This document shows, one piece after another, positions 52,763 through 57,855 of a stretch of DNA of 64,000 nt. The DNA lies in sequence record OP595146.1; one strand, given 5' to 3'. The notes under the pieces are model-generated. The model was not told the DNA's origin. It made no database searches and was given only the letters and a program-made list of their open reading frames with translations. Source of the stretch: Escherichia phage vB_EcoM_DE17. Positions within the stretch are counted from its first letter, which is position 1. Each line of letters begins with the position of its first letter. A program made the position numbers and the translations under genes.

Positions 52763-52954
52763 ATGAACAAAGAAGATAAACATAAAAATGCTGTACGAAC
52801 TCCTGATGGAAAGGTTCAATCCTTCATCCTTACAGTTGGTGGAAAGCCATTTCGTTGCCACTGCGGAGCAAACTGTTTTCATAAACCAGATAAAAATGAC
52901 TTAGAGCTTTACGCATGTAATGCTTGCAATACTTGGTATCACTCAGAGGAATAA
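52763..52954 (+). CDS. zinc-ribbon small protein (paralog of 52235..52438)
   Basis: 63 aa; CHCGANCFHKPDKNDLELYACNACN. Confidence 0.55.
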   Translation: MNKEDKHKNAVRTPDGKVQSFILTVGGKPFRCHCGANCFHKPDKNDLELYACNACNTWYHSEE

Positions 52955-52955
52955 A

Positions 52956-54059
52956 ATGACAATTCTGTACAAACAAAATAAAGATAACTCTTTTAACGTC
53001 TGGTCATGCGTTGCTGTAGGTGACAAAGTTATTACAACCTACGGTAAAGAAAATGGCAAGATGATGTTTGAAGAGTATACAGCAGAACCTAAAAACATCG
53101 GTAAAAAGAACGAGCGTAACGCTGAACAGCAAGCTCTCTTTGAAGTCGCTGCTAAGTATAAAAAGCAAGTTGACCGCAAAGGTTATGCTTACACAAAAGA
53201 ATCTGCACAGAATACTGAGAAGGTAGGTGTGCAGCTTGCTCATGATGCTGCAAAGGTTAGTCATGCAAAGTATCTGAAGTTCCCTGCTGATGCTCAACCG
53301 AAACTTGATGGTGTCCGTTGTAGGATTTCAAGGCACTTAAGTATTGGCAGTGTATTCACAGCATACTCTCGTGAAAATACTGTTTACAAAATCCCTACTG
53401 AACTAATACCTGATATTATGGCAATGTTAAGGCTCCACAAAGATGTTGATGAATTTGATGGAGAGATTTATGCTCATGGGTGGGACTTAGAAGATATTGT
53501 CTCTATGATTAAAAATGAAGACAATCCTGACCGTCATCTACTTAAGTTTTACTGGTATGATATCTGTGACAGTACTAAGACGTGGCCTGAGCGTAGAGAT
53601 ATTATTGAGACTTCACCATTGAATGACTTTAGAGACGGCTGTAAAGTTGTTCCTGTTAAGTCTCGTCGTGTAAATTCTTGGGAAGAGTTTGATGAAGCTC
53701 ATGATAAGTGGGTTGAAGCTAAGTTTGAAGGTGCAATGTACCGTTCAATCTCTGAAGACTCCTTCTATGAGTGCTGTCACCGTTCATACTTCTTGATTAA
53801 GCACAAGAAGATGCACACTGAAGAGTTTAAAGTGACTGGTGTAAAGACTGATAAGCGTGGTCATGGCAAGTTCGTTGTAGAGACTCTTCCTAACGTCTTT
53901 GTAGATGTCTCATGGAAGACTACTCATGAGAAGAAACAGTATCTTGCTGAGCATCCTGAAGAGTTTATTGGGAAGCCTTTAACGGTTCAGTTCCAGAAGA
54001 TGACTCGTAAGGGTTCTTTACAGTTCCCTGTTGGGCTAGTTATCAGGGATTACGAATAA
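52956..54059 (+). CDS. ATP-dependent DNA ligase
   Basis: Adenylation motif I KLDGVR (QPKLDGVRC); size matches T7-type ligases. Start set to the GAGGA-preceded ATG at 52956. Confidence 0.8.
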   Translation: MTILYKQNKDNSFNVWSCVAVGDKVITTYGKENGKMMFEEYTAEPKNIGKKNERNAEQQALFEVAAKYKKQVDRKGYAYTKESAQNTEKVGVQLAHDAAKVSHAKYLKFPADAQPKLDGVRCRISRHLSIGSVFTAYSRENTVYKIPTELIPDIMAMLRLHKDVDEFDGEIYAHGWDLEDIVSMIKNEDNPDRHLLKFYWYDICDSTKTWPERRDIIETSPLNDFRDGCKVVPVKSRRVNSWEEFDEAHDKWVEAKFEGAMYRSISEDSFYECCHRSYFLIKHKKMHTEEFKVTGVKTDKRGHGKFVVETLPNVFVDVSWKTTHEKKQYLAEHPEEFIGKPLTVQFQKMTRKGSLQFPVGLVIRDYE

Positions 54060-54065
54060 AAGTTG

Positions 54066-54093
54066 TTGACATAGAAAATTTGGTGAGTATACT
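54066..54093 (+). promoter_or_regulatory. sigma70-like promoter (TTGACA-16 nt-TATACT)
   Basis: Consensus -35 hexamer and near-consensus -10 with 16-nt spacer; the -10 overlaps the left arm of an 8-bp inverted repeat (GGTGAGTA ... TACTCACC). Confidence 0.4.
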
Positions 54094-54340
54094 GAGCAGC
54101 ATAAACTAACAGGTACTCACCAGCATCACTTAAGAGTCTTTTAAGAGGGTTTTAAGTAATGTATTGCACGGCAAGGCGATGTGAAGTCTGGTTTTGCATG
54201 GTGTGGTCTGGTATGGAAGGATGGCAGTAGCCTTATAAAAAATCTGCCAAATAAGCTATAAAATCTGTTGACAAGTCAGGTGTTATAGCTTATTTTTATG
54301 CTCAATGTAATACAAAATTTAATATAACTTTGAGGTCATT

Positions 54341-54724
54341 ATGAAAAAGATTTTATTAGCTGCTGCAATGGTTATGTCAATGAATTTACCAGTCAATGCA
54401 ACAGAACTCCCAAATGTGGACTTATCAGGTGTTCCAGAAGACACTTGTCAGATTGTTAAAGGTGTTGCTTTGACTAATGGTGAGTTACTTAAACCAATCT
54501 CTGAAGAGTCTTTAACAGAGATGACTGATAAGGTAACTGACTATCAGTATCGTGTTCTTGCAGAGTATTTCCTGCAATCTGCAAATATTAAAGAGAAGCA
54601 CCCTGATGATATTGATGTACAGGCTATGCTCAATCATCGTATTCAGTTTAAAGAAGATTTGATGCAAAAAGCTATGTATGGTGTTGAGTATTTCTTAGAA
54701 AACAGAAGCTGCACAGGTATTTGA
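54341..54724 (+). CDS. secreted/periplasmic hypothetical protein
   Basis: 127 aa; signal peptide MKKILLAAAMVMSMNLPVNA. Confidence 0.55.
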   Translation: MKKILLAAAMVMSMNLPVNATELPNVDLSGVPEDTCQIVKGVALTNGELLKPISEESLTEMTDKVTDYQYRVLAEYFLQSANIKEKHPDDIDVQAMLNHRIQFKEDLMQKAMYGVEYFLENRSCTGI

Positions 54725-54725
54725 T

Positions 54726-54938
54726 ATGGCTCTTAAAAAGTTACATCCTAGAAGTGGTTATGGTAAGATAATTGATGATACAGACGGCTTTACAGTCTTT
54801 ACAGTTATCTGTCAAGATGATTCACAGATTGAAAAGGCTCTTGATGATTATCTTAACGATGAACGTGAAAAGGTTAGGGCTACAAACATAGATTCATTGA
54901 TTGACACTTCACGCAAACGGAAGAAGAAAGATGAATGA
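54726..54938 (+). CDS. hypothetical protein
   Basis: 70-aa ORF. Confidence 0.5.
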   Translation: MALKKLHPRSGYGKIIDDTDGFTVFTVICQDDSQIEKALDDYLNDEREKVRATNIDSLIDTSRKRKKKDE

Positions 54939-55230
54939 GACTTTTGACCCTTATGCTCCACAAGATGATTGGGAGGCTGACAGAGAGGTTGAAATGGAGA
55001 GTTATATTTGTCCAATGGATGTAGACGAAATGAGAGATTTCGTTGCACATCGTTTTAAGAGAGAGATTAAATCCAGAGGTCTTTCTCAAGAGCAAGTTGC
55101 TAAAATTTGTGGTATCTCTCAGGCTCGCGTATCCAACATAATCCACCTCACTGGTAATGTCTCCCTTGAGTATATGTTGGAAGTATGCGAAAAATTTGGT
55201 GTTAATTTTAATTTAAGGCTGGCAGATTAA
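54930..55230 (+). CDS. helix-turn-helix DNA-binding protein
   Basis: LSQEQVAKICGISQARVSNI is a typical HTH; start set to the ATG at 54930 (the track ORF begins at a TTG). Confidence 0.5.
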
Positions 55231-55231
55231 T

Positions 55232-55591
55232 ATGAAACGTGAAAATATTATCCACTCTGAAAACTTCGCATTAGGCTTTTATGGTGTACCTACTCACCTT
55301 GAAAAGTATTATGGTGTGAAGATTCTTTCCAATCTCATTATTGCTTATAAAGATGGTAAGATTAAGCATACTGAGAAGAAACGTGTCATGGGTTATATGG
55401 CTGTAGGTTCAGCAATCTCAAACATTAAGCTGGAAACAACTAGTAGCCAGATTGTAAAAGACCACTTCATCAAAGAGCTTTACCACAATCTTGATGGTGT
55501 AGCTGTTCAGGCTGTTTGGCTGGATGTTGATGGTCACAATTACACAAGCTTCGTTTTCAAAAATGATGACATTAAGTGTCTGTTCCCATAA
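55232..55591 (+). CDS. hypothetical protein
   Basis: 119-aa ORF. Confidence 0.5.
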   Translation: MKRENIIHSENFALGFYGVPTHLEKYYGVKILSNLIIAYKDGKIKHTEKKRVMGYMAVGSAISNIKLETTSSQIVKDHFIKELYHNLDGVAVQAVWLDVDGHNYTSFVFKNDDIKCLFP

Positions 55592-55604
55592 TAGGTGATT
55601 AACT

Positions 55605-56120
55605 ATGATTGATGTCTACTTACAAGATGCTCATGCAGATTTCCTTAAAGTGATGCTTAAAAAGTTTATGGCTTCACAGTGTGAGAATGAAGCATCTTTT
55701 AAAATAGTTACATGTGGCGATGAAGCTGGTTTTGTTGAGATTGAACATGAAGGTACTGGAAAGATTGTTTGTAAGTTACCTGATAGTATGTTCTCTAACA
55801 CATTCTTAACAAAGACTAGTATAAATGTTAAGCTTGTACCTCAGATTGAAACATACTCTGGTACAGATTACCCTAAAGGTTTTAAGTCACTGATGAAGTA
55901 CTTCTTAGATGACTTTGTGAGTAATCTTCTGAGAGAGGTAAAAGAAAGTCGTACAGTGTTGACTGTAGAGAACATGGGAGGAACTATCAGGGTTACTTCT
56001 GACTGTTTTGTTATGAGCCTCTTCGACTTCGTTCCTAAGAACTTTGATGGTATTCTGGATGAAGAAGATGACTGTGTAGATTTTATATTGGTTCTTGAAC
56101 CAGTTTTTGAGGTTAAATAA
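55605..56120 (+). CDS. hypothetical protein
   Basis: 171-aa ORF. Confidence 0.55.
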   Translation: MIDVYLQDAHADFLKVMLKKFMASQCENEASFKIVTCGDEAGFVEIEHEGTGKIVCKLPDSMFSNTFLTKTSINVKLVPQIETYSGTDYPKGFKSLMKYFLDDFVSNLLREVKESRTVLTVENMGGTIRVTSDCFVMSLFDFVPKNFDGILDEEDDCVDFILVLEPVFEVK

Positions 56121-57831: not shown

Positions 57832-57855
57832 AAGGCTCCCGTAAAAAGGAGCCTT
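57832..57855. terminator. bidirectional terminator between thyA and the minus-strand late block
   Basis: GGCTCC-CGTAAAAA-GGAGCC hairpin flanked by A-run and T-run. Confidence 0.55.

Follow-up and report, generated by a model that had tools for sequence, protein, structure and literature searches.

As judged from its sequence, the region behind the DNA ligase gene of Escherichia phage vB_EcoM_DE17 is a self-contained small-RNA gene, namely a solitary guide unit of the type II (SUSP1-clade) VIPR systems. It probably acts as an orphan anti-vipr guide, which would turn the Vipr protein of a co-infecting rival phage against the rival's own gene. The window, i.e. the whole stretch of 64,000 nucleotides analysed here (record OP595146.1), derives from a Felix O1-like myovirus (Felixounavirus). 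VIPR itself is already known; what is new, by the sequence, is that a full lytic phage has kept a single guide without the effector, and that this guide is directed against the effector gene of the phage's relatives. This effector-less single-guide configuration is not described in the main text of the 2026 VIPR preprints, and the lone-guide arrangement is shared by ~100 sequenced phages, one of them being Felix O1, the classical typing phage.

VIPR was first described in 2026 as an RNA-guided DNA-binding system that is older than CRISPR and is used in phage-phage conflicts. Vipr is a small RAMP protein, and the guides (vrRNAs) consist of 9-16 YNNGG repeats and a pseudoknotted 3' tail. One GGY is gripped by each Vipr protomer, and the NN pairs read double-stranded DNA with every third base skipped, which is usually the wobble base. 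Guides of the SUSP1 clade target an E. coli satellite; altering GGY abolishes silencing, and internal degeneracy of the repeats is frequent (bioRxiv 10.64898/2026.04.26.720920,.720927).

Positions 53000-56000 of the window match 259 phage records, the best of which is Escherichia phage Ro111lw with 98.5% identity (85-97% for blocks of the whole window). The first gene downstream of the unit codes for a 127-aa protein, whose N-terminus resembles a signal peptide when the translation is judged by eye; its GAGG Shine-Dalgarno is located at 54332-54335, and a gene for an HTH regulator (54931-55230) follows 600 nt downstream. The preliminary description had reported a stretch devoid of ORFs, and there are indeed 0 plus-strand ORFs of at least 30 aa between the ligase stop at 54059 and the ATG at 54341. 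The following elements are recognised in and around this stretch (window positions):

52920..54059, plus strand: ATP-dependent DNA ligase gene, the upstream border (ORF; annotated as DNA ligase in relatives)
54066..54093, plus strand: P1, sigma-70-type promoter-like site TTGACA-16-TATACT (11/12 consensus match)
54081-54089 / 54114-54122: inverted repeat TGGTGAGTA / TACTCACCA, perfect over 9 bp, arms 24 nt apart (repeat search)
54124..54161, plus strand: unit header, imperfect palindrome CATCACTTAAGAGTCTTTT / AAGAGGGTTTTAAGTAATG (repeat search; recurrence before the tracts of relatives)
54153..54217, plus strand: vrRNA repeat tract, 13 in-phase pentamers of the pattern NN-G-G-Y (periodicity scan)
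54163..54212, plus strand: guide core with the NN dinucleotides AT AC AA GA GA CT TT AT GT CT (20/20 to vipr nt 469-497)
54213..54249, plus strand: vrRNA 3' tail, hairpin and pseudoknot (identity to the terminal-unit tail of SUSP1 and E9; covariation)
54249..54298, plus strand: AT-rich inverted repeat, 19-nt arms with 89% complementarity and a 9-nt loop, followed by a T-run (repeat search)
54268..54296, plus strand: P2, second promoter-like site TTGACA-17-TATTTT, for the downstream operon (10/12 match)
54341..54724, plus strand: first downstream gene, 127 aa, phrog_4332, function unknown (ORF; PHROGs)

A small RNA was one of the two options offered in the preliminary description, and at the level of the sequence it is borne out by what would be a VIPR guide RNA unit of ~100 nt, made up of a repeat tract and a pseudoknotted tail. 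The tract reads TAAGT AATGT ATTGC ACGGC AAGGC GATGT GAAGT CTGGT TTTGC ATGGT GTGGT CTGGT ATGGA, with G at position 4 and T or C at position 5 in 12/12 consecutive pentamers between 54153 and 54212. This run is unique in the window, and the in-phase score is far lower elsewhere, peaking at 6 on the minus strand of the window and at 6-8 in shuffled sequences. The period of five nucleotides rules out that the tract is coding. Full GGY is found in 6/12 repeats; the first G (G1) is missing from the other six, and the second (G2) and Y are present in 12/12. The idea that the tract has decayed, since half of its repeats lack GGY, was rejected because equally degenerate guides of vipr-carrying phages have perfect targets: the fourth vrRNA of phage SUSP1 contains full GGY in 6/11 repeats, yet has a perfect satellite target (22/22).

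The flanks of the tract are equally characteristic. A conserved header precedes every repeat tract of the type-1 header class; its copy in the window has one stem mismatch and reads GGGTTTT with four T, as also in Si3, Felix O1 and phiWec172, versus five T in several relatives. On the 3' side, the tail is identical to that of the terminal unit of SUSP1 and E9 over 54213-54249. Its hairpin is formed by TGGCAG (54222-54227) and CTGCCA (54244-54249), and AAGG (54217-54220) forms the pseudoknot with CCTT (54231-54234) in the loop. Among four tail types, hairpin and 4-bp pseudoknot leave 90.7% of the cells paired, versus at most 44% with slid partners, and 9/12 pairs change on both sides. The unit thus has the tandem repeats, the 3' tail and, as detailed below, the 1-nt-skip target of a type II vrRNA. 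It does not qualify as a CRISPR array, as there is one unit without repeat-spacer structure, and PADLOC and Pfam gave no Cas matches.

The claim of a 280-nt leader is not supported, because a terminator-like hairpin (54249-54298) and P2 (54268-54296) separate the small-RNA unit from the gene. The AT-rich hairpin forms in the predicted fold, is kept in all relatives and encloses the -35 of P2; together with the T-run it would constitute a terminator-like end of the small-RNA unit. Since hairpin and P2 stand between the unit and the gene, the 5'UTR of the 127-aa gene probably measures only ~40 nt. P2 itself is kept in every relative directly 3' of the last unit; it had been overlooked in the preliminary description, as had the AT-rich inverted repeat around it and the periodic tract.

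The promoter proposed at the start of the region, with its -35 TTGACA at 54066-54071, its -10 TATACT at 54088-54093 and a 16-nt spacer, is present as described and matches the sigma-70 consensus at 11/12; the promoter call is plausible, and the site is conserved. The inverted repeat is likewise there with its 24-nt spacing and its left arm over the -10, only that it is a perfect repeat of 9 bp instead of the 8 bp given before. Neither feature is statistically exceptional alone. The 64-kb window contains 7 promoter sites of 11/12 (shuffles: mean 3.1, maximum 9), so the consensus match of P1 by itself proves little, and by our own estimate a stretch of 280 nt would contain an inverted repeat of 8-9 bp by chance with a probability of about 0.1-0.2. 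Both are taken as real because they are conserved: P1 and both arms are unchanged in all ~35 Felixounavirus copies read, with variation confined to the loop between the arms, and substitutions beside the right arm extend the complementarity to 12 and 10 bp in Pr103Blw and mio, respectively. The repeat is possibly an operator of P1, for which the 24-nt spacing of its arms is atypical; it is not the main content of the region. In vipr-carrying relatives, P1 heads vrRNA1-vipr-vap1. A direct repeat, TACTGAGCAGCATAAACTAACAG / TACTCACCAGCATCACTTAAGAG, whose copies are 74% identical and 24 nt apart, extends at window positions 54090-54136 over the -10 of P1 and the right arm of the inverted repeat. 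Many promoter-like sites on both strands of the window share an extended -35 region, TGTTGACA or GTGTTGACA, as in P1 and P2 (examples at 43306-43278, 43645-43617, 23785-23756, 15942-15914 and 14895-14867), which suggests a phage-specific early-promoter consensus.

Database searches at first gave no name to the region. Rfam, at gathering as well as permissive thresholds, reported only two tRNAs in the window and nothing at E < 1 within 53900-54500; the two tRNA genes lie at window positions 122-280 on the minus strand, at the edge of the phage tRNA cluster. Searches of the cassette and the neighbouring genes against Pfam, PADLOC and PHROGs returned nothing beyond "unknown function", and no description of Felixounavirus intergenic repeats was found in the literature. 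The assignment came from the relatives, in which the distance from the ligase gene to the phrog_4332 gene amounts to ~200 nt, ~340 nt or ~1750 nt, the long forms containing two genes. Units of ~150 nt, each consisting of a header, 10-18 in-phase NNGGT pentamers and a hairpin, occur 1-5 times in these phages, and the hairpin stem varies between the copies in a compensating manner. About half of the relatives, including phage SUSP1, carry vipr-vap1 at the same site, flanked by 3-5 units. In Ro111lw (positions 2560-2715 of its locus) and pSJ21, the ligase stop is separated from P1 by an extra insertion of ~150 nt, which is annotated as a small ORF on the reverse strand and is missing from the window.

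The product of the first inserted gene, a protein of 195 aa, has no match in Pfam or PADLOC. A profile of 48 homologues matches PDB entry 36pp, "SUSP1 Vipr protein", with E = 1.3e-80, and the predicted structure of Vipr has a pLDDT of 94.6. The layout of the SUSP1 locus agrees with the published one, i.e. one vrRNA followed by vipr, vap1 and three vrRNAs. A scan of IMG/VR with a DNA pattern of seven consecutive GGTNN returned >120 unrelated viral contigs, 35 of which encode a homologue of the first inserted gene beside the array. Many of these contigs (L038-L154) carry tandem arrays of 11-13 pentamers with short lineage-specific separators (e.g. L047 3276-3975, L057 2187-2886 and L046 4762-5377); the matches to the pattern also include noise from simple microsatellites, (GGTCG)n and (GGTTA)n among them. 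Several earlier candidates were dropped once the linked protein had matched SUSP1 Vipr: a TRAP-like attenuator, G-quadruplexes, an R-loop origin and minus-strand rut/boxA sites and, on the same ground, T7-type primase sites, Shine-Dalgarno mimicry, pairing with tRNA CCA ends and a mobile cassette like the PeSLs of T4.

The locus in the window lacks the adjoining vipr gene and vap accessory gene of a complete VIPR system. The Vipr HMM finds no match in the window or in the complete genome of Ro111lw (86,950 bp), with E9 as a control yielding 1e-82, and no homologue of vap1 was detected in either sequence. For the 23 kb of the phage outside the window, we infer the absence of vipr from Ro111lw, which covers that part; the Ro111lw genome contains exactly one periodic tract. 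This state is widespread. The contiguous single-unit form occurs in 104/230 phage records matching the region, including Felix O1, and vipr is present in 130 phage records, with zero overlap between the listed records of the vipr group (45) and the single-unit group (60). As the single unit combines the type-1 header of a first unit with the tail of a last unit, it would represent the leftover of a recombination between identical headers flanking the cassette. Some phages without vipr keep two or three units, namely ECOH1 and those of loci L007, L011, L032 and L167, and most of their guides match satellites (33/34 for guide 1 of ECOH1); these arrays are perhaps the result of a recent loss of the cassette.

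By its sequence, the guide of the window is addressed to vipr. With a skip of 1 nt, it matches at 21/22 inside the vipr genes of SUSP1, E9 and others, as obtained in a target scan of 2.35 Mb including phage loci, in which shuffles of the NN order reached a maximum of 19; with skip lengths of 0 and 2, the guide reaches only 17. Its target at vipr nt 466-497 is read in coding-strand sense, the NN pairs falling on the first two positions of the codons and each skipped base on a wobble position. When the first, header-proximal pentamer is omitted, the match is 20/20 (vipr nt 469-497) in 7/16 alleles. No significant target was found in 74 E. coli satellite loci (17/22, z = 1), and a search of IMG/VR for the exact target pattern of 11 NN gave no hit. 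The single-unit guides of other phages point to different sites of the same gene:

vipr nt 40-65, template strand: guide of EC6 / JN01 (18/18)
vipr nt 4-32: guide of SP3 (18/20)
vipr nt 97-125: guide of L004 (17/20)
vipr nt 359-393: guide of RPN213 / D1-2 (19/24)

In all five single-unit families examined, the best match within the cassette lies inside vipr, two of them being borderline (z about 3). The guides of vipr-carrying arrays and of the vipr-less arrays with two or three units mostly match E. coli satellites. The skip rule was checked on a set of 8 E. coli satellite loci from complete genomes and 66 from metagenomes or species genomes, in which ~30 of 40 distinct guides from vipr-carrying arrays have matches of 82-100% (z of at least 4 against NN-order shuffles). 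None of these ~40 guides matches the vipr coding sequence; neither do the 11 guides of the vipr-less arrays with two or three units or 11 satellite-borne tracts. Among the guides of vipr-carrying phages, none was found to target the window phage.

Two guides of other phages may be mentioned in passing. Guide 2 of a vipr-carrying array (L031) matches at 18/20 just 5' of the vipr start codon of another phage (L029:440) and may be a VIPR-against-VIPR or an autoregulatory guide. Guide 1 of a vipr-less phage with two units (L032) matches at 20/26 (z = 5.3) on the minus strand of phage E9 (L002:6012), within a conserved Felixounavirus gene homologous to window positions 55605-56120 (phrog_4422), which would be a possible phage-against-phage target other than vipr.

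Guide and target also appear to vary together. In a set of 15 vipr alleles, codon positions 1 and 2 are variable at 9/83 sites inside the four tested target sites versus 5/309 outside them, an enrichment at guide-read positions with a Fisher p of 4.6e-4 for target sites that were defined after the fact. The vipr changes comprise Lys AAA to Arg CGA or AGA and Leu TTG to CTG. Within the guide family of the window (10 phages), G2 is invariant and Y is always T or C; changes are seen at four G1 and three NN positions. One of the NN changes sits at a non-pairing position, and the other two have counterparts among the vipr alleles, TT to CT in CTG and AA to AG in AGA; the CTG alleles are matched at 20/20 by the guide of the Felix O1 type. 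Since the guides track vipr alleles and vipr varies at guide-read positions, guide and target appear still to meet, and an ongoing interaction is suggested by this small sample with its post hoc sites.

The proposed mode of action starts with host RNA polymerase, which would initiate at P1 near 54100 and transcribe the short header, ~12 NNGGY repeats and the tail with its pseudoknot. The AT-rich hairpin and T-run probably terminate this transcript, and the next genes would be driven from P2, which lies inside the hairpin. In single infections the orphan RNA is expected to remain idle; its own phage lacks the target vipr. In a mixed infection with a vipr-carrying relative, the rival's Vipr protein would load the orphan RNA, and the guided filament would then sit on the rival's vipr gene and block transcription of vipr and vap1. 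Such an anti-VIPR guide would need no effector gene of its own. We regard this mode of action as rather probable. Its extension to the whole group, according to which vipr-less Felix O1-like phages carry an early-expressed, guide-only counter-weapon and are engaged in an ongoing arms race of escape substitutions in vipr and matching changes of the guides, is advanced with more reserve, as a serious possibility falling just short of an even chance.

The alternative to be taken most seriously is that of an inert relic, in which a self-targeting guide silenced vipr, the loss of the gene became neutral, a header-to-header deletion removed vipr-vap1 and the remaining RNA now has no role. The single unit with its type-1 header and terminal-type tail is exactly the predicted product of such a deletion, and the model requires no benefit to explain why anti-vipr guides are confined to single units. 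G1 is degenerate in half of the repeats, and a benefit of the guide is indeed hard to see, as the guides of the relatives target satellites that presumably harm both phages. The vipr-less arrays of two or three units demonstrate that guides outlive the loss of vipr; these phages keep anti-satellite guides which are unusable alone, so that persistence of a guide is no proof of its use. Against this stands that five guide families directed at five vipr sites would demand five such events, and that ~100 phages, Felix O1 among them, have retained the form with an intact tail and an undisturbed 5-nt phase, G2 and Y. Moreover, guide variants follow the vipr alleles, and vipr varies preferentially at the positions read by the guides. 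An inert relic is therefore considered unlikely, if still a substantial contender.

Far less probability is assigned to the idea that the orphan RNA is a sponge which titrates the rival's Vipr off the rival's guides, the match to vipr being incidental. For this role it would be enough to have in-phase repeats, the intact tail and a strong promoter of the early type, yet a decoy should be indifferent to its NN string, and 5/5 single-unit families point into vipr in codon phase. The model of the preliminary description taken alone, in which a sigma-70 promoter under operator control and its long structured leader regulate the downstream operon with no trans-acting RNA, appears slightly more improbable again. 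It can draw on the conservation of P1 and the inverted repeat, on the two variants with extended pairing and on the HTH regulator gene at 54931-55230; however, the terminator-like hairpin and second promoter detach the unit from the gene, and in relatives this P1 stands in front of vrRNAs and vipr rather than of the downstream operon. Nor does the model account for the periodic tract, the covariation of the tail or the match to vipr. Scarcely credible, finally, is some other G/T-rich periodic feature, such as a TRAP-like attenuator, two-tier G-quadruplexes, an R-loop origin, clustered primase sites or minus-strand rut/boxA sites. The triplets at 2-nt spacing are TRAP-like, GGTGTGGTCTGG is similar to the thrombin aptamer and ACC is abundant on the minus strand, but the conserved T or C after GG is not needed by a quadruplex, no Rfam family matches, and the periodicity is accounted for by the associated RAMP protein, of which a structure bound to this RNA has been solved.

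A comparison of the presumed orphan guide with known systems places it closest to the type II VIPR vrRNAs of SUSP1, homologues known to be expressed, with which it shares the site between the ligase and phrog_4332 genes, P1, P2, the header, the 9-16 YNNGG repeats and the terminal tail, as well as the 1-nt-skip code and an in-frame target with the skipped bases at wobble positions. SUSP1 differs in having four units with vipr-vap1 in cis and a satellite target, whereas the window contains one unit, neither gene and vipr as the target. Satellite-borne vrRNAs without vipr have been reported, whose guides target other satellites, and vrRNAs targeting other VIPR systems are known from a Pseudomonas fulva clade (bioRxiv 10.64898/2026.04.26.720920,.720927). 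The former resemble the window unit as guides on a Vipr-less element which must borrow the protein of a helper, but their carrier is a satellite instead of a full lytic phage, and the target in our case is the effector gene. The latter also represent VIPR against VIPR, with an attacker that owns vipr, whereas the attacker in the window would be guide-only and dependent on the protein of its victim. Outside VIPR, effector-less viral guide-type RNAs in virus-virus or anti-effector conflicts are represented by virus-borne mini-CRISPR arrays, orphan CRISPR arrays and RNA anti-CRISPRs. These share the effector-less viral RNA with the window unit and differ by their repeat-spacer organisation from its pentamer code; RNA anti-CRISPRs are repeat mimics that poison assembly, not guides to the effector's own gene. 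The trp leader of Bacillus presents eleven or so (G/U)AG triplets, 2-3 nt apart, each bound by one subunit of TRAP. It differs from the window unit by an unrelated protein, by being a cis-acting attenuator RNA and by the lack of any nucleic-acid targeting.

If the proposed mode of action is true, these phages would be the first viruses to disarm an RNA-guided system by supplying a guide against its effector gene. An active guide would imply that an RNA-guided system can be subverted by a rival supplying RNA alone; it would also explain the diversification of vipr at particular codons and put a natural anti-VIPR tool at hand. Furthermore, a "hypothetical intergenic region" is re-annotated in a large group of therapeutic and typing phages.

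Some minor observations concern the satellites and the remainder of the window. The E. coli satellite targeted by most Felixounavirus guides is ~11 kb long, resides in yecE (DUF72) or near tonB/wrbA and occurs in ~10% of complete E. coli genomes (loci L155-L162 and L172-L237; e.g. L156 4779-16200). It codes for a serine recombinase, baseplate and tape-measure proteins, an HNH endonuclease and Dam; Vipr was not found in the 74 satellite loci. A stretch of 1.5-2.5 kb without annotation contains vrRNA-like tracts of the satellite's own. In the window itself, a GC-rich hairpin at 57832-57855 with T-runs on both strands separates the thymidylate synthase gene from a minus-strand gene that converges on it, and looks like a bidirectional terminator.
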